Below are positions 3,000 to 58,359 of a DNA stretch of 64,000 nucleotides, one piece after another. This DNA is from a virus (taxonomy: Duplodnaviria > Caudoviricetes): IMG/VR virus record IMGVR_UViG_3300020492_000001, positions 1-64,000 of that record. The stretch is one strand, 5' to 3'. The notes beneath the pieces are model-generated. The model was not told where the DNA came from. It made no database searches and saw only the letters and a list, made by a program, of their open reading frames with translations. A program made the position numbers and the translations under genes. The stretch's first letter is position 1. Each line of letters starts with the position of its first letter.

Positions 3000-5900
3000 G
3001 TTGTAGGGGTATAATTATTTAAACTATATCCTCTAGCCTCGTCTGCTTTTAATCTAGCTTGTTGGTCTTGTCTAAATCTATATGCTCCAATAGTATTAGC
3101 TAATCCTGCGCCTATTAATTCACTTCCTGCTTGTTGTTTTTGCTGAAAGGTATTCATAGCATCGTTATAAGCTTGTCTTCTATTAGCTGCTAATATAGTT
3201 GCTCTATCAGCCGCCATTACATCAGCATATTTTTGCTTATTCATTCTCATCTCAGAGTCAGCTTGTTTTAAGCCTAATTTATTCTTCCAAGCATCGTTAA
3301 TAGCAGCTCTGTTACGATTAAATGAATCAGATGCGCTAGCATTTAACCCTGCAAATTTAGCATCGTTTAATCCGCCTTGTATATCTTGCTCTGCCATGAA
3401 TCTTTGCTCAGGAGTTAATCCGAATAAAGCATCTTGTTGAGCGCGGTTAACAGCAGCATTATAAGTTGGGTCTATTACAGCTTTATCAATAGGACGTTTC
3501 TCTTTGCCTAGCATATTTAATCCTAATGCAGATTGTCCTATTCCTACGAATGCAGTTGGGTCAATATTACTTAATTTATCCGCCCAAGCGTTTTTAGATT
3601 TAGGTTTTGACGCTAAATAATTTTCATTATTTACTACATTAGCATCGTTTATAACAGCTTGTCTTGTTGGTGCATTAGCAATAGAAGCCTCTTGCATAGC
3701 AGCTTGATTAGCAGTCTTTAATTCAGCATCTTGTTTTAATCCTTGTAAAGACAAATCCTTAGTAGGTAAATTATCTACTGTTACTTTAGAAGCCTTTACT
3801 TTAGGTGCTTTTAAAGATGGTTTAGCTGTAGGTATATTTTCAGTAACTACACTTGGCTTAGTTTCCGCTTTAGGAGCTACTTTATTTGTCGCAGCCTTAA
3901 CTTCTGCGACATCTTGTTTAACTTCAGTCGTAGGCGATTCCGTTGATTTACTATCTTCAACCGCTTTTGTTTTTTTGTTTTCATTAAGTAATTTATTAAC
4001 ATTAGCTATCTCTTTACCTATGTCAATAGTTTTTTTCTGAAGATTAATCTTAGCTATTATATTCCCAGAATCAGCGTCTTTTTTAATATCGGCATATTCT
4101 TTAAGAAGGTCTTTTTTTCTTTGAACAAGAGCTTTTTCTTCATTTTCAACTTGCTTAGTCGTTTTATTAACAACATTATCTTTGTAAGGCTTATTTTCTT
4201 TTGGATTAAAAACTTCTAACTTAGGTCTAGTCTTAGCACTTTCATAAAGCGATACTTTATCTTTTAAAACGCCTTTAGCCTTATTTAAGTATCCTAATTT
4301 ATCATTTTCTATTTTATCATTTAGCTTCTTAGTAGATTCATGATTGTCTGTAACCTTTCTGTCTTTTTTAAAATCATTTAGCTCTTTTTCTAATTTAGAC
4401 ACTTCTTTTTTAGCATCCATAACTTTTTTAGCGTTAGCCACAATCTCATCATTATTATCAACGTCTCCGCCTAAAGCATATCCTTTCATCTTAGGAGCCA
4501 TAATCTCACCTCCTTCTGCCCATGTTGTTCTTGCATAAGCTCTGAAATGAGGATTGTTATCTAAGTTCTCTTTATGTCTTGCGTAGAAAGCTTTTTTTCT
4601 TTCAATGTCTTTAGGATGTTGTCCTAAGTTAGGGTCTCCAAAGTATTTTACAGTTCCATCTGGTCCTGTTACTTTATGAGTTTTACCTTCTCTATCACCT
4701 GACCTTTGAACTACATATCCGCCCATTTTCATTTCTTCACTATTATTTTCTGAGTTAGGAGCTAAATCTTCTAATTCAATACCAATAGATTCTAAGTATT
4801 CATTCTCTTCAGGAGTAAACAAATGTTCTCCATTAGATAGTTTTACCGCTTCTCCTTCTTCTTGTTTAAGATTAGCTTTCTTATTAGGAGCTTTTAAATA
4901 TAGTTTACGAATACCTTTTGCTAGTTCTGCATTCTCGGCAGGCACTACAAATGAGCCTTCTTTTACTTCAGCCATTATACTGTCTGATTTAGCAGTTCCT
5001 TTACCTTTAATATCTCCGCCGTCAGCATACATATTTTTTATTTTACCAACTACACCACCTCTATTCATCATAGGACGATTCTTATCGAATTGTTGTCCAT
5101 CAGCCAATATCATGTTTTGATTCTCATCAAATGTAACTCCGCTTAAATTATAAGGATTAGTTATTGTAGGATTTTCTTCTTGGTTATTTCTAGCTAATAT
5201 TGCTTGTTGTTGTTTAGATGCAGTGTTAGCATCTTTTACTTCTTGAAGTTGTTTCTGAGCTTTATCTTCTAATGACTTAGTATATCCTTTTCCTGATACA
5301 TCAGTCCATCCTCCAGCATAAGAACTTCTTGTAGCTAAGGCTTTACTTGGACTTAAAAAACTTGCTCCGATAGCTGTTGTTCTAGCATCAGATTCGTTAT
5401 TAAGTTTTCCTTCTGCATTCATTGATTCTTTTCTAGCCTTAATAGGTTTTCCTATCTTATCTCCTATTGCAGCTATTCCACCAATCATTCCTCCTATTGG
5501 TCCCATTTGAGATGCGGCTGCTAATCCTGCGTTTCTTGCAGATTCTCCTTCATTTTGTGCAGGTTGTGAATTGTAATAAGCTGAGCCTATACCTCCCATT
5601 CCTTCTCCTATTCCATTGGCTACATTTCTAACTTTTTGTTGATTAGCTTTCTTTTTATTTTCATCTATAGCCTTTTTAGCTTGCATATTGTTTTGAGCAG
5701 TATATTGATCATTCATTCCAACTACGCCACTTCCAAATGTATCTATTGGTTTATAAGAACTGTTTGAATCCCCATAGGTTCCATCAATATTCATATTAGG
5801 ATTATAGACAGGACCTCCATCATAATATCCTTTAATCTTACTTACAATACCACCTTTAGCAAACTTACCTTTAATCTCAATAGGATTATCTATATTGTAC

Positions 5901-6810: not shown

Positions 6811-7320
6811 CTAACGAGCTGCTCGACTTAAAAAAGCAAAGAAATATAAAGAATCTTCTATTTTATTAATCTTATCTCTGTAATTAAATTGAACTGAAAC
6901 AACTTTAAATCTAAATAATTTATTAAACACGTTTTGAGGAATAGCATATTCAACATAACTCAACTTATGATCTATTTCAAATGCAGCAATATAATCTTCA
7001 CTACCATCTTCAAATCCTATTTTTATAATAGAGTTGTTTAAATCTGTAGTCTTAGAGAAATAAGCATACAATCTAACTCCATAATGGCCAGCGCGGATAC
7101 TGTCAGAGAAAACAGAAAAATAAGTAGTATCTTTTCCGTCAACAAACTCTAAATTATAAGAAGGATATTTTGTAATGATACTTTTCTTGTAGTAAGAATT
7201 ATAACTAGAATATCTTTCTATCTCCATAGATTGCCCAAAAGCACAACTGCTTAATAATAAGAATCCAAATGATAATAATAAAACTAAAATGTTTGTTCTA
7301 CGAGATTTAATAGCTTCCAT
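6811..7320 (-). CDS. putative lipoprotein/membrane protein
   Basis: Basic N-terminus, hydrophobic stretch, lipobox-like LLSSC. Confidence 0.5.
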   Translation of the reverse strand: MEAIKSRRTNILVLLLSFGFLLLSSCAFGQSMEIERYSSYNSYYKKSIITKYPSYNLEFVDGKDTTYFSVFSDSIRAGHYGVRLYAYFSKTTDLNNSIIKIGFEDGSEDYIAAFEIDHKLSYVEYAIPQNVFNKLFRFKVVSVQFNYRDKINKIEDSLYFFAFLSRAAR

Positions 7321-51821: not shown

Positions 51822-52178
51822 ATGAAAAACAATCCAACAACAGGAAAACGCAAAGAGGCGGATGCTCCAACAAACTTAGTAATAGAAGGTTCTATTGACT
51901 ATAAACTAACTATATCTAAAAAAGGATATGAATTAGAAACTAAGAATAGTATTGATAATGATTTAGCTGCCATGTTACACGCAAGAGGAATAATAGAAAT
52001 GTATAAAAAAGACTCTGAGATGACTAAAGCTCATCCTATTTATAAAATGATGAAGCCTGACAAAAGAAAAGAATTTAATAGTAAGTACGATAAACTAATT
52101 CACGCATCTTATATTATAGAGAAATTATCTGGAAAATTATTAGAAAATGCTATGATAGCTATTAACAAAAAAGATTAA
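51822..52178 (+). CDS. hypothetical protein
   Basis: Co-oriented ORF. Confidence 0.55.
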   Translation: MKNNPTTGKRKEADAPTNLVIEGSIDYKLTISKKGYELETKNSIDNDLAAMLHARGIIEMYKKDSEMTKAHPIYKMMKPDKRKEFNSKYDKLIHASYIIEKLSGKLLENAMIAINKKD

Positions 52179-52182
52179 TGCC

Positions 52183-52428
52183 ATGAAACATAAACGCGAA
52201 CTTAAAATTTATAACGGAAGAGTAAAAGTATATGTAGATGGATACGTGATGTTTTCTTTTAATCAAATTGACTTCTTAGGTTATTATGCTTATAAGGACG
52301 ATACTTCACTCTACGGATTAGATATTTATTTATTAAGAGAAAAAGCGGGTGCGTCCACGATGGAAATTTACTTTAAAACTAAAGAGAATTGGCTCGAAAT
52401 GCTTAAATTACTTGATACTCATTTGTAA
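52183..52428 (+). CDS. hypothetical protein
   Basis: Co-oriented ORF. Confidence 0.55.
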   Translation: MKHKRELKIYNGRVKVYVDGYVMFSFNQIDFLGYYAYKDDTSLYGLDIYLLREKAGASTMEIYFKTKENWLEMLKLLDTHL

Positions 52429-52450
52429 TTTAATTATTTTGAAAATAAAC

Positions 52451-52478
52451 GTAACCTTTTAAATTTATATACGTTTAA
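52451..52478 (+). promoter_or_regulatory. ECF-like promoter motif at the head of the cassette array
   Basis: GTAACC-N15-CGTTTAA, 6 bp before hairpin 1. Confidence 0.7.
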
Positions 52479-52484
52479 ATAGAT

Positions 52485-52614
52485 AGATAACGTTGAGTAT
52501 ATATGTTCGGTTGCGATTAATAGCACGAACTTATCAATTTAAACAAAACTTAATAGAATGAACAAAATTTCAAATAAACACGAAACCGCAACTGACATAT
52601 ATACTGTGTTATGT
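52485..52614. repeat. attC-like hairpin 1
   Basis: AGATAAC-GTTG-AGTATATATGTTCGGTTGCG ... CGCAACTGACATATATACT-GT-GTTATGT. Confidence 0.85.
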
Positions 52615-53010
52615 GCTGCCTTTTGTGGTGCTGGTAAAACATTTATTTGTGATAAAACAGATATAAAGGCAGTTGAAGTTGAATATTGGAAGTATAAAGA
52701 AAAAGGACTGTTCAAAGAATATATTGAAGATGTTAAGAAGTATATCGGTAAGGTAGATTACATCTTTATTGCAACAGAGCCAGAAGGAATGAAATTGCTA
52801 CATGATGAAGGATTTGAAATAACTCTTGTTTACCCAAAAAATGAACTCCGAAACGAATATTTGGATAGATACATTGAGCGTGATAGTCCTTATGATTTTA
52901 TTGGAACATTTATGAAGCATTGGCATATATGGATTGATGAACTTAAAGAGCAAAAATATTGTAAGCATATTATTTTGGATTCAGGACAATACTTGCAGAA
53001 TGTTCTTTAA
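52558..53010 (+). CDS. cassette 1 ORF: P-loop kinase-like protein
   Basis: VLCAAFCGAGKT Walker A; starts inside hairpin 1. Confidence 0.65.
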   Translation: MNKISNKHETATDIYTVLCAAFCGAGKTFICDKTDIKAVEVEYWKYKEKGLFKEYIEDVKKYIGKVDYIFIATEPEGMKLLHDEGFEITLVYPKNELRNEYLDRYIERDSPYDFIGTFMKHWHIWIDELKEQKYCKHIILDSGQYLQNVL

Positions 53011-53016
53011 GGTTGC

Positions 53017-53109
53017 ACATAACGTTTTGCGGCTTGGCGAAGGCTGCCTAACGGATGCTCAATTTTCGCACAAATTTCAATGGCAGCTTTTGCCAAACCG
53101 CTGTTACCT
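53017..53109. repeat. attC-like hairpin 2
   Basis: ACATAAC-GTTTT-GCGGCTTGGCGAAGGCTGCC ... GGCAGCTTTTGCCAAACCGC-T-GTTACCT. Confidence 0.85.
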
Positions 53110-53418
53110 GCTGGGCGGTTTATCAGTAGGAACTTAAAAATAATATTCAAAATGTTGCCAAAAGAAAAAGCACAGGAACTTGTAAGCAAGTTTAAAGATT
53201 ACGTTCACGGATATGTTGGTAGCTCAATGCTTACCAACCATGAATACCCTGAACAAATTTTATCACAAGCAAAGAAAGTAGCAATTATTGTTGCAGATGA
53301 AATGCTCCATCAATACACTACTTTAAATGCTGATTTAATAAACGCATTGTATCGAACAGAAAAGGTTGTCTTTTGGCAACAGGTCAAAATAGAAATTGAT
53401 TATGTGTCGGAATTGTAG
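53080..53418 (+). CDS. cassette 2 ORF: MTPKEKA-family protein (alternative start at MLPKEKA)
   Basis: MLPKEKAQELVSKF...AIIVADEM...FWQQVKIEI. Confidence 0.6.
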   Translation: MAAFAKPLLPAGRFISRNLKIIFKMLPKEKAQELVSKFKDYVHGYVGSSMLTNHEYPEQILSQAKKVAIIVADEMLHQYTTLNADLINALYRTEKVVFWQQVKIEIDYVSEL

Positions 53419-53424
53419 CCTTGC

Positions 53425-53557
53425 AGGTAACGTTTCGCAGCTATATTTAGTTGCGATTTTGAAAAACAAAAGTTTAATTAATAAATAAAAGTAAATATGA
53501 AAAACAAAGTTGAAAATAAGAGCAATAATAAGCAATTGAATATACTAGCTGTTAGGC
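53425..53557. repeat. attC-like hairpin 3
   Basis: AGGTAAC-GTTTC-GCAGCTATATTTAGTTGC ... GCAATTGAATATACTAGC-T-GTTAGGC. Confidence 0.8.
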
Positions 53558-53940
53558 GTAGTTTTTTTAACTTCAAGTATAAATGGCCATTAAGAAAATA
53601 CTGGCTTAATTGGTTTAAAAGAGATGTTAAGAGATGGTATTATTCTAAAATACACGGTTTTAAAATGGGTGTATTTGATGGAACTATGATTCCAACTACT
53701 GGTAAAGGTAAATATGTATCTGTTTATTCTAAAGGTGAAATAATCCAAATTAAACATGAAAGCGGTTATGAACATTTAGAGTATGATGAAATTAGAATAA
53801 TACCATGTCAAGAAAATCACGGTGTAATGGTTGAAAGATTTAAAACAGGAAAAATGTGCGATAGAAACCACATGGATTTAAAGCAATTTAATAAAGGTAT
53901 AATTTTCGCTTCCAATGTTGAACAGTTGGCTGGTCGTTAA
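53497..53940 (+). CDS. cassette 3 ORF, hypothetical
   Basis: Starts inside hairpin 3, stops 6 nt before hairpin 4. Confidence 0.6.
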   Translation: MKNKVENKSNNKQLNILAVRRSFFNFKYKWPLRKYWLNWFKRDVKRWYYSKIHGFKMGVFDGTMIPTTGKGKYVSVYSKGEIIQIKHESGYEHLEYDEIRIIPCQENHGVMVERFKTGKMCDRNHMDLKQFNKGIIFASNVEQLAGR

Positions 53941-53946
53941 AATTAC

Positions 53947-54082
53947 GCCTAACGTTTTGCAACTTGCATTAGTGCCTTGCAAAAATACGAGTAGCTTCGG
54001 ATTAAAAAAGAACACAACAAATAAAAAACAAACATTAAATTAACAACCAAGCCAAAGGCATTGATGCAAATTGCTGTTATGC
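53947..54082. repeat. attC-like hairpin 4
   Basis: GCCTAAC-GTTTT-GCAACTTGCATTAGTGCCTT ... AAGGCATTGATGCAAATTGC-T-GTTATGC. Confidence 0.85.
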
Positions 54083-54107
54083 GCTGGCAAAAAAAAAATT
54101 AAAAATT

Positions 54108-54422
54108 ATGAGTACAATTATCGAAGACATTCAGTTTATGAAATCAATTTTGCCTGAACACTATGAGGTAAAAGAAAGTAAAAAATCAGGTTCAATTCAT
54201 TGTAAATCAAGTATTGGATTAAGAAAAACGCCATACAATAGTTTTGATAGTTTTAAACGACCAATTATTGTTGATGATGCGGAAGATGAAGAACAATGGT
54301 TTTATATCGTTGAAGCTATTAAAGCAAAGTTTGGCGAAAGGTTACAGGAAATTGACCATAACACTTGTTTTTGCCACGTCGATTTCACGATTTATCTGCG
54401 GTTTTCCGTTGCTTGCGCATAA
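54108..54422 (+). CDS. cassette 4 ORF, hypothetical
   Basis: Stop codon is the TAA of the next site's GCATAAC. Confidence 0.6.
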   Translation: MSTIIEDIQFMKSILPEHYEVKESKKSGSIHCKSSIGLRKTPYNSFDSFKRPIIVDDAEDEEQWFYIVEAIKAKFGERLQEIDHNTCFCHVDFTIYLRFSVACA

Positions 54423-54548
54423 CGGTTTGCAGCTAAACGAGGTGGCTGATTAATACCTCGAAACTTAATTAAAAGAACAAAATTATGAACACAGACAAAA
54501 GTTTATTAGAAGAACAAAGCAAGCCATCTTTTTTAGGTGCTGTTATGT
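54417..54548. repeat. attC-like hairpin 5
   Basis: GCATAAC-GGTTT-GCAGCTAAACGAGGTGGCT ... AGCCATCTTTTTTAGGTGC-T-GTTATGT. Confidence 0.85.
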
Positions 54549-54691
54549 GCCGTTTTTTATTCCAATACAGAAGTATGGATAAAGATTTAATGGTACATAT
54601 TGAAGCAAGTAGTTTAAATTATGCAATGGTGAAATTTGCAACTCACTACCATTTAATTGATGAAGTGTATGAGATTGCAAGGGTGTCCTAA
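54485..54691 (+). CDS. cassette 5 ORF, hypothetical
   Basis: Starts inside hairpin 5 (…SFLGAVMCRF is encoded by the right arm). Confidence 0.6.
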   Translation: MNTDKSLLEEQSKPSFLGAVMCRFLFQYRSMDKDLMVHIEASSLNYAMVKFATHYHLIDEVYEIARVS

Positions 54692-54697
54692 AATGGC

Positions 54698-54847
54698 ACA
54701 TAACGGAAAATAATAAACGTATGTGTTGGTGTGTGGTTAAAGTGTTCCTCTGGCTAATGGACAAGTACCATAACCGTAAGTGCCTAAAACTTACCATACC
54801 ACGCTACGGGCGGAACACGCCAACATTACGTTTATTTATTGTTAGCA
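54698..54847. repeat. attC-like hairpin 6
   Basis: ACATAAC-GGAA-AATAATAAACGTATGTGTTGG ... CCAACATTACGTTTATTTATT-GTTAGCA. Confidence 0.75.
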
Positions 54848-54862
54848 AATCGTTTTAATGTT

Positions 54863-54941
54863 TGCTAACGGCATCAAGCTAAAAGCTGACCGCCTAATAA
54901 GCGGTTAGTATATGGCGGTTTGATTTTAGGTTGTGTTATGT
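54863..54941. repeat. attC-like hairpin 7
   Basis: TGCTAAC-GGCAT-CAAGCTAAAAGCTGACCGCC ... GGCGGTTTGATTTTAGGTTG-T-GTTATGT. Confidence 0.8.
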
Positions 54942-55003
54942 TGGTGCGATGGCAAGTGTGTGAGGCAGTTTTATTTTATTAATTTTTAAAAAAGCGGAGG
55001 AAA

Positions 55004-55216
55004 ATGGAAAACTTATACTTTAGAAAAAAACTTATATGGGCTGAAATTGAGCGATTAAAACACGAACTTGAAAAGAATCAAGAGTTTATTAACTTATTTC
55101 AAAAACAAAACAATGATTTGCTAAAACAGATTGAAAAGCAATTTAAAGAAATAGAAATTGTTGGAGAGCAATTACTAAAAATAGAAACAGAACAATTAAT
55201 AAAACATGATTTATGA
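55004..55216 (+). CDS. cassette 7 ORF a, coiled-coil hypothetical
   Basis: Heptad pattern. Confidence 0.55.
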   Translation: MENLYFRKKLIWAEIERLKHELEKNQEFINLFQKQNNDLLKQIEKQFKEIEIVGEQLLKIETEQLIKHDL

Positions 55217-55482
55217 CAACAGAAAAACCACTTAGAAAAACAGGCAGTTATATAGTAATTGCCAAACGTTGGAGCAGCGAACAATCACATAATTACATTG
55301 TAGATTTATGCTCAGGAATTGATTCAGCTAAAGAAATTGCAGAAAATGAAATGCGAGAGCGTGGCGGTAAATATGGGATACAGATAATTGCTTTTAGAGA
55401 AGATAACAACGAGCAAGAAATTGTTTTTGAAATTGAAAGCCCATATAAGAATAAGGTAAATATACCTACTGATAACGCTTAG
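55213..55482 (+). CDS. cassette 7 ORF b, hypothetical
   Basis: ATGA overlap with ORF a. Confidence 0.55.
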   Translation: MTTEKPLRKTGSYIVIAKRWSSEQSHNYIVDLCSGIDSAKEIAENEMRERGGKYGIQIIAFREDNNEQEIVFEIESPYKNKVNIPTDNA

Positions 55483-55519
55483 GTGCGTAGGCTTTTAAAA
55501 ATTAATAAAATAAAATTGA

Positions 55520-55606
55520 ACATAACGGTTTGCAGCTAATAGAAGGCTGTAATTACACAAAAATATATGAGCTGTTAACTCAGCTTTTTATTAGGTGCTG
55601 TTAGTA
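55520..55606. repeat. attC-like hairpin 8
   Basis: ACATAAC-GGTTT-GCAGCTAATAGAAGGCTG ... CAGCTTTTTATTAGGTGC-T-GTTAGTA. Confidence 0.85.
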
Positions 55607-55655
55607 CCAGTAGCCAAATTAAAATTTAAAAACAATAACAATTAAAAACTAAAAT

Positions 55656-55934
55656 ATGAAAAACAACAAAGAACAATCGTACCAATACGCTGCAATTATA
55701 CAAGGCGCAATAGCAGAAATGTTAAATGAAGATAGTGATAGCGATTATAGAATATCGTTAAGCGATTTTGATGATGAGGATAAAGCAACTGCATTTTTGC
55801 ACGCATTAGCTAATATAGTGCCTTGTAATATCTATAAAAAATTAACTCAAGATGATACTGACATTTTAGGTTTTAATCATATCGCTAATAGATTAGTATA
55901 TCAATTTACAAAGCAGGACGAAGCCGAAGATTAA
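55656..55934 (+). CDS. cassette 8 ORF, hypothetical
   Basis: Fills the interval between hairpins 8 and 9. Confidence 0.6.
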   Translation: MKNNKEQSYQYAAIIQGAIAEMLNEDSDSDYRISLSDFDDEDKATAFLHALANIVPCNIYKKLTQDDTDILGFNHIANRLVYQFTKQDEAED

Positions 55935-55951
55935 ACATCAAAGGCTATTAG

Positions 55952-56082
55952 TACTAACGGTTGGTGCTTTATTTAGTGCCGACTTAACAGATAAAATTTA
56001 ATTGAAACACAAATGAAAAATAAAAAGACAAAAGTAAAATCGAAGCCGAAAACTAAGGCATTGAATAAAGCACTTGTTAGCA
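55952..56082. repeat. attC-like hairpin 9
   Basis: TACTAAC-GGTTG-GTGCTTTATTTAGTGCC ... GGCATTGAATAAAGCAC-TT-GTTAGCA. Confidence 0.85.
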
Positions 56083-56270
56083 GTAGTGCCTATGTGCGTT
56101 ACCGCTACTCAGGTAAATCTTCTTCAATATTTTGGGATATAGTAAATTCATTACCAAAAGATGCAGACAGACAAGAGATGTATGCTTTAGGATGCGTTTT
56201 GCAAAATGTTGAAGAAGATGTGTTGAGAACACTAAGGAATATTAACAGCAAGTATGTGCGTGGCAAATAG
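56013..56270 (+). CDS. cassette 9 ORF, hypothetical
   Basis: Starts inside hairpin 9. Confidence 0.6.
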   Translation: MKNKKTKVKSKPKTKALNKALVSSSAYVRYRYSGKSSSIFWDIVNSLPKDADRQEMYALGCVLQNVEEDVLRTLRNINSKYVRGK

Positions 56271-56277
56271 GCATTAC

Positions 56278-56411
56278 TGCTAACGTTCTGGCGGTTGGCG
56301 TTCGTTGCCGACTTTGGAACACTAAACTTTCACTTTTAAAATAAATTTGATATGGAACACAAAACTTCAATAAACCACGAAAACGGCAATGACGCCAACC
56401 GCTTGTTACCA
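56278..56411. repeat. attC-like hairpin 10
   Basis: TGCTAAC-GTTCTG-GCGGTTGGCGTTCGTTGCCG ... CGGCAATGACGCCAACCGC-TT-GTTACCA. Confidence 0.85.
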
Positions 56412-56579
56412 GCAGTTAGTTGGTATAAATCATTATCGCTCAACCAAAAGATGGCGCTCAAAGAAGTATCAGCATTAATTTGTGGAATGAAATGGGAAGA
56501 TTTCAATATTCTATTCAGTCCACGAGAAAGACTTGAGATATTGCACAACAAATTAATATTGGAAGGTTTCCTTGTCTAA
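56352..56579 (+). CDS. cassette 10 ORF, hypothetical
   Basis: Starts inside hairpin 10. Confidence 0.6.
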   Translation: MEHKTSINHENGNDANRLLPAVSWYKSLSLNQKMALKEVSALICGMKWEDFNILFSPRERLEILHNKLILEGFLV

Positions 56580-56583
56580 TTGC

Positions 56584-56681
56584 TGGTAACGTTTTGCAGC
56601 TAATAGAAGTGGCTGCTTGTAAGAACTTCTGAATTATAAACAAATGCTTGTAGCAGCCATTTTTGTTAGGTGCTGTTATAA
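56584..56681. repeat. attC-like hairpin 11
   Basis: TGGTAAC-GTTTT-GCAGCTAATAGAAGTGGCTGCT ... AGCAGCCATTTTTGTTAGGTGC-T-GTTATAA. Confidence 0.85.
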
Positions 56682-56700
56682 GCTGTAAAAATTACGACTT

Positions 56701-56907
56701 ATGAAAACGTATTTATCATTTTACGGAGATTGTTATTACCCAAGCGGTGGTATGGGTGATTTTATTGGAGATTACGACACCAAAGAAGAAGCGATACAAG
56801 CTATTGAAGAAGCTCACAAAAAGAACCGCCCTGATGATTTAGAATGGGAGTGGGCTTGGGCTAATGTTTGGAGTGCACATGACCGAATCGAAGTGTACAC
56901 TAAGTAA
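56701..56907 (+). CDS. cassette 11 ORF, hypothetical
   Basis: MKTYLSFYGDCYYPSGGMGDF; fills the interval. Confidence 0.6.
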   Translation: MKTYLSFYGDCYYPSGGMGDFIGDYDTKEEAIQAIEEAHKKNRPDDLEWEWAWANVWSAHDRIEVYTK

Positions 56908-56917
56908 TTTTTATTGC

Positions 56918-56981
56918 TTATAACGGATGAAGCCTTACCCAGCGAAGGTGTCGACCGAGTTGGGTAAGGGTTGGGTTATAA
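56918..56981. repeat. attC-like hairpin 12 (shortest, 64 bp)
   Basis: TTATAAC-GGATG-AAGCCTTACCCAGC ... GTTGGGTAAGGGTT-GG-GTTATAA. Confidence 0.85.
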
Positions 56982-57032
56982 GCTGACGGTTACTAATGTT
57001 ACTATGAAAAACAATTTAAAAAAAATAACGAT

Positions 57033-57218
57033 ATGATTGAAATAGAAGAATTATTTGGTGGAAATGATGCCGAAGAACACAATGTTTTATACACTATTAT
57101 TAAAAATAGAGGATATAAATATTTTGAAGAAACACCCAAAACAAGTATGACTTGCGGATTAATTAAAGATTTACACGAACTAAATTACGAGATTGTAAAA
57201 AAAAACGTTTCAAAGTAG
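57033..57218 (+). CDS. cassette 12 ORF, hypothetical
   Basis: Fills the interval between hairpins 12 and 13. Confidence 0.55.
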   Translation: MIEIEELFGGNDAEEHNVLYTIIKNRGYKYFEETPKTSMTCGLIKDLHELNYEIVKKNVSK

Positions 57219-57229
57219 CTACCGTTTGC

Positions 57230-57353
57230 TTATAACGGTTCGCAGATAAACGCAGTTTTATGAAACAGAAATTAGATATAGAAAAAATTAGAGAGTTGGA
57301 AACCATAGCTAAAGAATTAGATGCTGAAAAATTGCGTTTATCTGCTGTTAGCA
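57230..57353. repeat. attC-like hairpin 13
   Basis: TTATAAC-GGTTC-GCAGATAAACGCAGTTTT ... AAAATTGCGTTTATCTGC-T-GTTAGCA. Confidence 0.85.
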
Positions 57354-57457
57354 AATCGGTTTGCGACCACTCTTGGATGAACACAGGATTATCAGTACAA
57401 GGCAAAAGTTTGATGGTATGCACCAAATGTAGGGAAACCAAGCAAACTGTTTGCTAA
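57260..57457 (+). CDS. cassette 13 ORF: coiled coil plus CDH..C..C zinc-ribbon-like tail
   Basis: VCDHSW...MVCTKC; starts inside hairpin 13; stop is the TAA of the terminal TGCTAAC. Confidence 0.55.
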   Translation: MKQKLDIEKIRELETIAKELDAEKLRLSAVSKSVCDHSWMNTGLSVQGKSLMVCTKCRETKQTVC

Positions 57458-57480
57458 CTATTATATGTAAACTACCCTTT
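57452..57480. other. candidate attI-like primary recombination site
   Basis: Lone TGCTAAC box not followed by G or a hairpin arm; TGCTAAC-TATTATAT-GTAAACT; 67 bp upstream of the recombinase start. Confidence 0.55.
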
Positions 57481-57525
57481 AAACTAACAGCAAAATCAAT
57501 ACTCTTTAATTAAAAAATCGAAAAT

Positions 57526-58359
57526 ATGAATTTAGAAAAGTGGATAAATAGATATAAAACTGATTGTGCTTTAAAGTATAATAGTGATGCAACCAAAGAA
57601 AATTACACTTCTGGAGTTAAATCTTTTCTTATAAAATTCGATAAATATTCTGAGCCTAAAGAAATACCGACTCAGGAAATTAAAGAGTATTTATTGACTT
57701 TTAAAACGATAAATACACGAAAGCATAACCTTTGCTCTATTAAATCTTTCTATAAATTAACTGTAGGTATGCCAAGCAAGATTGATAAGATTCCTTATCC
57801 TAAGTCTGATAAGAAACTACCTATCGTTCTTTCTGTAAACGAAATTCAAAGAATGTTTAATGTCTGCCAAAATAAGAAGCATAAAGCAATTTTAGCTTTA
57901 CTGTACTCTTGTGGATTACGTGTATCGGAACTTATAAATTTGAAATGGAAAGATATTGATAGAAGTAGAATGGTAATTAATATAATCCAAGCTAAGGGAA
58001 ATAAGGATAGGCAAGTCCCATTATCTCAAGATTTGATTAATGTATTAGAAAGTTACTGGAATGAGTACAAGTCCGCCGAGTATGTTTTTAATGGACAAAA
58101 ATCACTGCAATACACAGATAGAAGTGTAGGAGAAGTAATTAAACAGTTGGCAGATAAAGCAGGAATATGTAATAAAAGGGTTTACACACACCTTATGCGT
58201 CATTGCAGCTTTACGCACATGGTTGAGAACGGAACTGATATTTCGCTTATCCAAAGACTCGCTGGACATTCTAGTGTAAAAACGACTAATATCTACCTCC
58301 ATATCAGCCATAATCACATAAGTAAAATCCAAAGTCCACTAAGTAATATTAAATTATAA
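57526..58359 (+). CDS. tyrosine recombinase, IntI-related/XerD-like (277 aa)
   Basis: LPIVLS..E, LYSCGLRVSE (R), AKGNKDR (K), HLMRH (HxxR), LAGH, TNIY (Y), C-terminal IQSPL. Confidence 0.92.
   Translation: MNLEKWINRYKTDCALKYNSDATKENYTSGVKSFLIKFDKYSEPKEIPTQEIKEYLLTFKTINTRKHNLCSIKSFYKLTVGMPSKIDKIPYPKSDKKLPIVLSVNEIQRMFNVCQNKKHKAILALLYSCGLRVSELINLKWKDIDRSRMVINIIQAKGNKDRQVPLSQDLINVLESYWNEYKSAEYVFNGQKSLQYTDRSVGEVIKQLADKAGICNKRVYTHLMRHCSFTHMVENGTDISLIQRLAGHSSVKTTNIYLHISHNHISKIQSPLSNIKL

Follow-up and report, generated by a model that had tools for sequence, protein, structure and literature searches.

Integron-like sites in bacteriophages have been described by Qi et al. (2023, PMC9892861), who reported clusters of attC sites lacking an integron integrase (CALINs) in phages, including Polaribacter phage P12002L. 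In these phages, attC-like hairpins flank small genes, among them genes for DNA methyltransferases, and one of the P12002L sites was recombined by IntI1; divergent directions of the sites were taken as mosaicism (Qi et al., 2023). No account of the system analyzed here was found in the literature searched, in which the study of Qi et al. (2023) comes closest to it. The present analysis concerns a stretch of 64,000 nucleotides (the window), which comprises the first 64 kb of IMG/VR virus record IMGVR_UViG_3300020492_000001, a complete tailed-phage genome of 76,304 bp with direct terminal repeats of 99 bp. This stretch contains an array of hairpins and small open reading frames (ORFs) that ends at an attI-like half-site directly ahead of a gene for a tyrosine recombinase. 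With considerable confidence, the locus can be read as an integron-like cassette platform on a tailed phage, in which the mobile units consist of a hairpin and the ORF downstream of it, and in which many ORFs start inside the hairpin.

Hairpins were folded as DNA under constraints, and the whole genome was scanned for them with a purpose-written scanner (threshold score ≥ 13). Constrained folds were adopted because unconstrained folding, when pairing of the TAAC and GTTA ends was required, missed most hairpins (3 of 13 were recovered), the stem of 4 bp beside the bulge (the R stem) being weak. Thirteen imperfect hairpins in a single orientation were placed between 52488 and 57350. Each consisted of a left TAAC box, a bulge of 4–5 nt (often GKTTT), a stem of approximately 20 bp, a loop of 10–90 nt, a right arm, and a GTTA box, usually with one unpaired T between right arm and GTTA. 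On the + strand of the whole genome, the scanner returned 10 matches, all within 52489–57349, while shuffled genomes gave 0–4. In a set of 66 distinct hairpins from this phage and its relatives, the two arms of a hairpin paired at 13.8 of 16 positions and arms taken from different hairpins at 5.9 of 16, and all four Watson-Crick pair types were present at each stem position. The hairpins are real structures whose arms covary, with structure conserved and sequence not. They fell into two length classes, of about 122–128 nt (long; approximately 40% of cassettes) and about 46–94 nt (short). A search of 52000–58000 against Rfam yielded no family, the sole match being a chance hit to mir-84 (E-value 0.42). 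Within the stems, a C·A mismatch recurred at position 5 (14 of 66 hairpins) and a G·T wobble at positions 13–14 (20–21 of 66); by analogy, these marks may be comparable to the extrahelical bases of attC.

A search with the recombinase yielded 31 IMG/VR loci (related loci are denoted by L and a number) and 15 contigs of metagenome-assembled genomes (MAGs), most of the latter binned with Bacteroidota, and the host of the phage probably belongs to the Bacteroidota. In viral and MAG loci, hairpin arrays on the + strand lay directly upstream of the recombinase gene. This architecture is shared by more than 40 uncultured relatives and, among cultured viruses, by the Polaribacter phages Freya, Leef, and Danklef. 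Counts taken from the automated walk along the arrays are lower bounds, as this walk was incomplete (in the window it passed over H6 and H7, and in several loci it ended early or without an attI-like site).

Phages with 100% identical recombinases carried different arrays, which were reordered and had gained or lost units at the AAC core. Backbone homology halted at the left box of hairpin H1 (about 52494–52497) and resumed at the armless TAAC (57452–57455). Four units of the window recurred, reordered, at 97.7–100% identity in L002, L004, and L005, each reaching from its own left TAAC to that of the following hairpin. These were the units of H5 (54420–54706; 100% identity in L002 and L004, with other neighbors), H9 (55954–56284; 100% in L002, L004, and L005, where it directly abuts the attI-like site), H10 (56273–56618; 97.7% in L002 and L004, at another array position), and H11 (56587–56925; 100% in L002 and L004). 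An unbiased survey of homology breakpoints placed 27 at a left AAC, 26 at the AAC of an attI-like site, and none at a right GTT; the remaining breakpoints represented backbone mosaicism, lay 10–26 nt off a left box, or fell at hairpins that the scanner had missed. This distribution therefore supported a mobile unit composed of hairpin and downstream ORF, with crossover probably in the left AAC. The base preceding AAC paired with the GTT flank of the upstream unit in 71 of 71 cassettes, and there were 7 exceptions to its pairing with the flank of its own following hairpin. This base thus belongs to the upstream unit, which would place the point of exchange within AAC.

The original prediction, made from sequence alone, had proposed this same unit, with crossover at the left AAC and a polarity that reverses that of classical cassettes. 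It was borne out by the AAC-to-AAC units and by the breakpoints, and the hairpin that accompanied homologous ORFs elsewhere was the upstream one, both in the four reordered units and in a unit shared by phages Freya_10 and Danklef_1. Judged from the direction of the ORFs, which read towards the attI-like site and the recombinase, the polarity of the cargo is opposite to that of classical integron cassettes; viewed from the opposite strand, the locus has classical integron geometry with all cargo inverted. In a classical arrangement, each ORF would instead belong with the downstream hairpin and crossover would occur at the right G|TT. The extra unpaired bases on the left arm, through a loose analogy with the extrahelical bases on the R″–L″ arm of attC, would make + the top strand; bulge position as a guide to polarity is analogy only, however, and was contradicted by the junction data. 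Matching cassette ends fit either model, and flank complementarity was dropped as a polarity test because both models predict it. Next to no weight can be given to the classical arrangement, in view of shared units that all run from left AAC to left AAC, the absence of breakpoints at right GTT boxes, and array ends that are asymmetric, with a full hairpin at the distal end and an armless AAC half-site next to the recombinase. Crossover at the right box would, moreover, sever those ORFs that start in the upstream hairpin. A separate pattern was observed for the H7 cassette, of which only the ends (54920–55003 and 55480–55526) matched L026 (476–559 and 1105–1151) at about 97.6–97.9% identity. 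The recombinase of L026 was only 63% identical, and the cargo and most of the hairpin differed there; it looks like cargo was swapped within a conserved cassette frame.

The two ends of a cassette were complementary to each other. In the window, when the 12 nt past the right GTT were paired with the 12 nt leading up to the following left AAC, 9.5 of 12 positions were complementary, as compared to 4.5 of 12 for the flank preceding the same hairpin and 4.1 of 12 for non-self ends. Across 71 distinct cassettes, flank positions 1–6 and 9–12 were Watson-Crick pairs, with selection bias at positions 1–6 from the array walk. Position 8 was a wobble of G (GTT side) and T (AAC side) in 59 of the 71 and a Watson-Crick pair in only 2; this fixed G·T forms only when the ends of one cassette meet. 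Position 7 was often T·T, in the window (52608–57458) and in related loci. Among stem mismatches read on the + strand, G·T outnumbered A·C by 83 to 24 (p = 9e-9). Together, the stem bias and the fixed G·T at flank position 8 point to folding of the + strand.

The core of the attI-like site consisted of an armless TAAC, a spacer of 4–5 nt, and ATATGTA, and was located 52–70 nt before the recombinase ATG in relatives with 56–100% protein identity; in the window, its TAAC stands 70 nt ahead of the recombinase. The recombinase, the only tyrosine recombinase in the whole genome, matched PF00589 and PF13495, and its catalytic R, K, HxxR, H, and Y residues were invariant in 13 relatives. Its best family model, NF040815 (XerA/‘integron integrase’), scored 198 bits against a cutoff of 220. 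Scores were likewise below the curated cutoffs for TIGR02249 (integron integrase; 164 bits in two stretches against 265), XerD (175 against 330), and XerC (162 against 335), so that the protein was not assigned to any Xer family. The closest solved structures were archaeal XerA (4a8e, 5hxy) and XerD. Alignment with IntI4 (2a3v) paired residues 17–172 with 16–175 and residues 202–274 with 248–319, leaving 29 residues where IntI4 has 72; the recombinase thus lacks approximately 43 amino acids of the IntI insertion (I2 helix region). In an integron-like subgroup of recombinases, this insertion has been described as ‘not fully conserved’ (Smyshlyaev et al., PMC8138268). No dif-like site (28 bp with a spacer of 6–8 bp) was seen by eye in the sequence read, with no dedicated dif search run. 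We infer that this enzyme catalyzes the exchange, that its substrate is single-stranded, and which bond is cleaved.

Seven ORFs, at 52558, 53080, 53497, 54485, 56013, 56352, and 57260, had been predicted to start within hairpins and to read through the right arm and GTT box. All seven, and the seven peptides quoted for these stretches, were found. Starts inside the hairpin were supported for five of them. The phrog_4182 alignment of ORF 52558 begins at residue 16; homologues outside cassettes (e.g., in the hairpin-less L033) begin 3–4 residues before the GTT-box codons, with M-x-K-T-V-L-C-A-A-F, and cassette versions carry an additional 13–15 variable N-terminal residues. In an AlphaFold (AF2) model of this protein, residues 1–13 were disordered and the first β-strand (residues 17–21), coded by the GTT box and its flank, immediately preceded the GAGKT loop. 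Short homologues of ORF 53497 begin at about residue 26, with no alternative Met available. In the family of ORF 54485, a variable extension precedes a Val that is nearly invariant and coded by GTT, and at the GTT-ATG position a Met is absent from many members; ORFs 56013 and 56352 have no usable Met downstream. Two of the predicted starts weigh against in-hairpin initiation. Position 1 of the phrog_21441 profile corresponds to Met25 of ORF 53080 (ATG at 53152, 49 nt past GTT), which is probably its true start, and the in-hairpin start of ORF 57260 is weak (phrog_27296 match across the right arm, E-value 5e-4). The A-rich leaders that had been predicted within long loops were present in four of the seven ORFs (A 0.56–0.60 at –25 to –1), and the long loop did not hold for ORF 57260, whose ATG is at the end of the left arm. 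The proposed dual-coding nature of the site was upheld, with the qualification that the arm-encoded peptide is a variable extension, lacking in homologues outside cassettes.

Of 69 distinct cassettes whose ORF was 50 amino acids or longer, 30 had a start inside the hairpin, nearly all in hairpins of the long type, and in 25 of these 30 the ATG was located 42–66 nt ahead of GTT. The cargo frame was open from GTT in 26 of 35 long hairpins, and 21 of these 26 had an in-frame ATG inside the hairpin. The 25 nt before in-loop ATGs (A 0.51, G 0.07) resembled those before backbone gene starts (A 0.50, G 0.09). In L010 and L017, which have homologous hairpins, the arm-encoded leader ‘LQSCVS’ was joined to unrelated cargo, and Pfam methyltransferase domains in the cargo of relatives begin past the GTT box. 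Loop and right arm thus appear to code for a variable N-terminal extension of approximately 14–25 amino acids, with translation presumably starting at the loop ATGs.

A reversed cassette system could also be real with loop ATGs that are incidental, if all translation started from or after the GTT box and the site were not dual-coding. About 57% of cassettes in the family clearly start past the hairpin, ORF 53080 fits the later ATG better, the N-terminal extensions are variable and predicted to be disordered, and some cassettes use an ATG within or beside GTTATG. Incidental loop ATGs are nevertheless difficult to reconcile with ORFs 52558, 53497, 56013, and 56352, which have no Met near their conserved core, with the overlap of the core of ORF 52558 (first β-strand and P-loop) with the GTT box and flank, or with the Val codon in the family of ORF 54485, many members of which have no following Met. 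Nor would they account for an in-frame ATG without a stop, at so narrow a distance from GTT, in 21 of 26 read-through long hairpins, or for a leader composition equal to that of real gene starts, and we consider this explanation quite unlikely. No Bacteroidota –33/–7 promoter motif in the hairpin loops was convincing by eye. Long hairpins without a loop ATG (e.g., window 53950–54079, L039 943–1836, and L008 2762–2887) shared a conserved motif at the end of the loop, immediately before the right arm (approximately AAACAAAC(A/T)TTAAATTAA(T/C)AACC), which might be a promoter or binding site.

The same architecture was found in cultured phages. Polaribacter phages Leef_1 and Freya_10 have hairpin arrays upstream of an annotated ‘integrase’ that is 31–32% identical to the window recombinase, with core boxes CAAC...GTTG and an attI-like CTAAC plus NCCCCTATA about 45–55 nt upstream of the recombinase. 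Freya isolates differed upstream of the integrase, with breakpoints at AAC boxes, and Freya_10 and Danklef_1 shared a unit of 1169 nt (99.6% identity) with AAC-to-AAC bounds. The genomes of Freya_1 to Freya_10 (MT732463–MT732472) range from 43,978 to 48,920 bp, with the length difference upstream of the integrase, and the starts of several Freya records fall on AAC boxes (Freya_10 query positions 903 and 4098). Whereas the window cassettes code for small proteins without known function, cargo of relatives included N6/N4 and C5 DNA methyltransferases, a TET-associated glycosyltransferase, and a PAPS-reductase-like protein, which suggests functions in DNA modification and anti-restriction.

Several observations weigh against an integron-like platform. 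The recombinase lacks the insertion that integron integrases need for folded attC, and recognition of hairpins would therefore need another way. In Danklef_1 (L053), the annotated integrase (6849–6980) is a remnant of 43 amino acids and the hairpin cluster is nevertheless present; a similar cluster occurs in P12002L, which has no recombinase. Within the array, the R stem comprises no more than about 4 bp. The array walk selected on flank positions 1–6 and on total match, which biased the pairing there and left position 8 unselected. Finally, the G·T bias is on the mRNA-sense strand and may reflect folding of RNA rather than of single-stranded DNA. Alternatively, the hairpins might act mainly at the RNA level or as regulatory elements, for instance as stabilizers of mRNA or as structures with the start codon displayed in the loop, if mosaicism arose by illegitimate or homology-driven recombination between intergenic repeats, as proposed for the stem-loop cassettes discussed below, and if the recombinase were a lysogeny integrase that is a neighbor by chance. 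The presence of translation leaders in the loops, the G·U character of a sense-strand G·T bias, and arrays without an intact recombinase (P12002L, Danklef_1) agree with such a role, and Bartlau et al. (PMC8776804) took the homologous gene only as a marker of a temperate lifestyle. Breakpoints, however, are confined to an AAC of 3–4 nt that is flanked by unrelated sequence, a length that would not suffice for homologous recombination, and arm sequences differ between cassettes, contrary to repeat-driven shuffling. The attI-like half-site keeps its distance from recombinases of 56–100% identity and recurs in Leef_1 and Freya_10 at 31–32%, and complementarity of the ends over 12 bp, in which position 8 is a fixed G·T, makes sense only if the ends are joined or paired. 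An RNA-level or regulatory origin of the array is accordingly regarded as unlikely, and a recombining cassette array is preferred. As a separate observation, the cassettes of Danklef_1 were 97–99.6% identical to those of Freya_10 despite the remnant integrase.

The features of the array are listed in Table 1. ORFs ended either approximately 11 nt before the next AAC or with a stop formed by the TAA of a TAAC box; the latter applied to ORFs 54108–54422 and 57260–57457 (stops at 54420–54422 and 57455–57457) and was also seen in several relatives. Units without an ORF occurred as well. In the window, 54701–54869 contains only a 144-nt hairpin and the mini-palindrome GTTAGCAAA-TCGTTTTAATG-TTTGCTAAC, of which the TCGTTTTAATG center recurs in the attI-proximal mini-unit of L001 (about 4518–4547), L006, and L028–L030; such units may be empty cassettes or carry non-coding cargo. 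A Logan contig of 25.6 kb (L034) contained approximately 19 small co-oriented ORFs and at least eight hairpins of the window type, and its array may be much longer than that of the window. In one of its units, which codes for a homologue (81% identity) of the ORF 52558 product, the loop is homologous and the arms differ. The window array is situated in a rightward-transcribed region of replication and early genes, with a helicase module on one side and the recombinase, followed by DnaB, on the other. Genes for a portal protein, a major head protein, a DNA helicase, and a DnaB-like helicase are present in the window.

Table 1. Hairpins, cassette ORFs, attI-like site, and recombinase gene of the array (positions refer to the window).
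Feature	Position	Strand	Remarks
H1 hairpin	52488–52611	+	Distal array end; ATG 52558 in loop; right arm and GTT box code for residues ~8–21 of a P-loop-like protein
Cassette 1 ORF	52558–53010	+	150 aa; phrog_4182; Walker-A-like GAGKT; in-hairpin start supported
H2 hairpin	53020–53106	+	Short type, 87 nt
Cassette 2 ORF	53152–53418	+	Probable true start, Met25 of ORF 53080, past GTT box
H3 hairpin	53428–53554	+	ATG 53497 in loop
Cassette 3 ORF	53497–53940	+	147 aa; N-terminal extension of 20–26 aa missing in short homologues
H4 hairpin	53950–54079	+	Long type, loop without ATG; followed by ORF 54108–54422
H5 hairpin	54420–54545	+	ATG 54485 in loop; GTT is codon of conserved Val20
Cassette 5 ORF	54485–54691	+	68 aa
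H6 hairpin	54701–54844	+	144 nt, structured loop; belongs to ORF-less unit
Mini-palindrome	54841–54869		Closes ORF-less H6 unit
H7 hairpin	54866–54938	+	Short type; two ORFs in cassette, 55004–55216 and 55213–55482
H8 hairpin	55523–55603	+	Short type; followed by ORF 55656–55934
H9 hairpin	55955–56079	+	ATG 56013 in loop
H10 hairpin	56281–56408	+	ATG 56352 in loop
H11 hairpin	56587–56678	+	Short type; followed by ORF 56701–56907
H12 hairpin	56921–56978	+	Short type; followed by ORF 57033–57218
H13 hairpin	57233–57350	+	Nearest attI-like site; ORF 57260–57457 begins at left-arm end
attI-like site	57455–57469	+	Armless TAAC (57455–57458), then TATTATATGTA; from here on, backbone is again homologous in all relatives
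Tyrosine recombinase	57526–58359	+	277 aa; Xer/IntI clade

In the mechanism that we propose, a single recombinase of the Xer/IntI clade, encoded immediately downstream of the attI-like site, would act on the cassette array upstream of that site. Read on the coding strand, a cassette would comprise the C of AAC, a bulge of 4–5 nt, left arm, loop, right arm, GTTA, flank, ORF, complementary flank, and TAA, and crossover in the left AAC would move the hairpin together with its downstream ORF. All cargo faces the attI-like site and the recombinase, and would presumably be expressed within the rightward transcription unit of the phage. In long hairpins, the loop would supply an A-rich, G-poor leader and an ATG 42–66 nt before GTT, and loop, right arm, and GTT box would be translated as the N-terminal extension, fused to the cargo protein. 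The substrate would probably be the folded coding (+) strand, above all in an excised circle, where the cassette ends could lengthen the stem by approximately 12 bp, including the nearly universal G·T at position 8.

We lean slightly towards a wider interpretation, in which Bacteroidota phages have an integron analogue of their own, with an insert-less recombinase of the Xer/IntI clade, a folded sense-strand circle as substrate, marked by a bulge of 5 nt and a fixed G·T wobble, and a site that doubles as a portable module for translation initiation. Such a site would provide any cargo with an unpaired A-rich leader, an ATG, and a leader peptide, and genes without a Shine-Dalgarno sequence could then be expressed wherever the cassette lands. 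The methyltransferase and glycosyltransferase cargo would suggest that anti-restriction genes are traded between co-infecting phages.

If this interpretation is correct, the integron principle of hairpin sites, attI, and arrays would extend to phages, and also to a recombinase that lacks a domain considered essential for reading folded attC, which would bear on the evolution of integron integrases from Xer-like enzymes. The cassette design would be new, in that the recombination site would serve as translation start and as part of the protein, and in-site starts would suit hosts in which translation begins on A-rich, unstructured leaders and not on Shine-Dalgarno sequences. The system would offer a concrete mechanism for fast reshuffling of small early phage genes, including those for DNA modification, and genes that have been read as evidence of a temperate lifestyle may call for reinterpretation. 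Because the Polaribacter phages Freya, Leef, and Danklef are in culture and have the same architecture, experiments are feasible.

Among known systems, the CALINs of Qi et al. (2023, PMC9892861) share hairpins of the window type, which P12002L bears; that study did not describe a link with a phage-encoded Xer-type recombinase, an attI-like site, reversed polarity, or starts inside the site. Xer/dif systems resemble the locus in that the window recombinase is a simple two-domain tyrosine recombinase. The difference lies in the sites, which are hairpins of 46–145 nt. Besides Xer/dif itself, pdif modules and integrative mobile elements exploiting Xer (IMEX) make use of Xer sites. Cassettes of the PeSL (promoter and stem-loop) type, which Arbiol et al. 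reportedly described in T4-type phages in 2010, are said to consist of small early genes flanked by stem-loops, in hyperplastic regions with shuffled gene order, and their shuffling is reportedly attributed to homologous recombination that acts on conserved promoter and stem-loop sequences. In the present array, by contrast, the arms are not conserved, the breakpoints coincide with a core of 3 nt, and the cassettes are linked to a dedicated recombinase and an attI-like site. IS200/IS605 and REP/RAYT elements differ in their HUH Y1 transposase, for which no PF01797 match was present in the complete phage genome.

Likeness to integrons is more extensive. Cassettes and backbone join at the attI-like half-site, which stands beside the recombinase gene at the start of an array of small cassettes, as attI stands beside the integrase in integrons. 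As in attC, the sites are imperfect hairpins with AAC...GTT core triplets, in which structure is kept over sequence; crossover appears to occur in one conserved triplet, cassette ends are complementary, and cassettes are shuffled between close relatives. Like IntI4, the recombinase carries an SPLS-type tail at its C-terminus, and TIGR02249 matches it, although below the cutoff. The differences concern carrier, enzyme, and site. The array is carried by a phage whose genome has direct terminal repeats, and the recombinase, for which the XerA model scores best, lacks the IntI-specific insertion of approximately 43 amino acids. Relative to attI-like site and hairpin, the cargo occupies the opposite strand, whereas an integron cassette is an ORF followed by its attC, with the ORF directed away from attI under the Pc promoter, and many start codons and N-termini appear to lie within the recombination site. 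A bulge of 4–5 nt is located beside the crossover box, whereas attC has single extrahelical bases on the far arm, which direct bottom-strand selection, and end complementarity extends over 12 bp with a fixed G·T, as compared to 7 bp in integrons. The system appears to work like an integron, yet departs from integrons in two defining features, the IntI insertion and the polarity of the cassettes.

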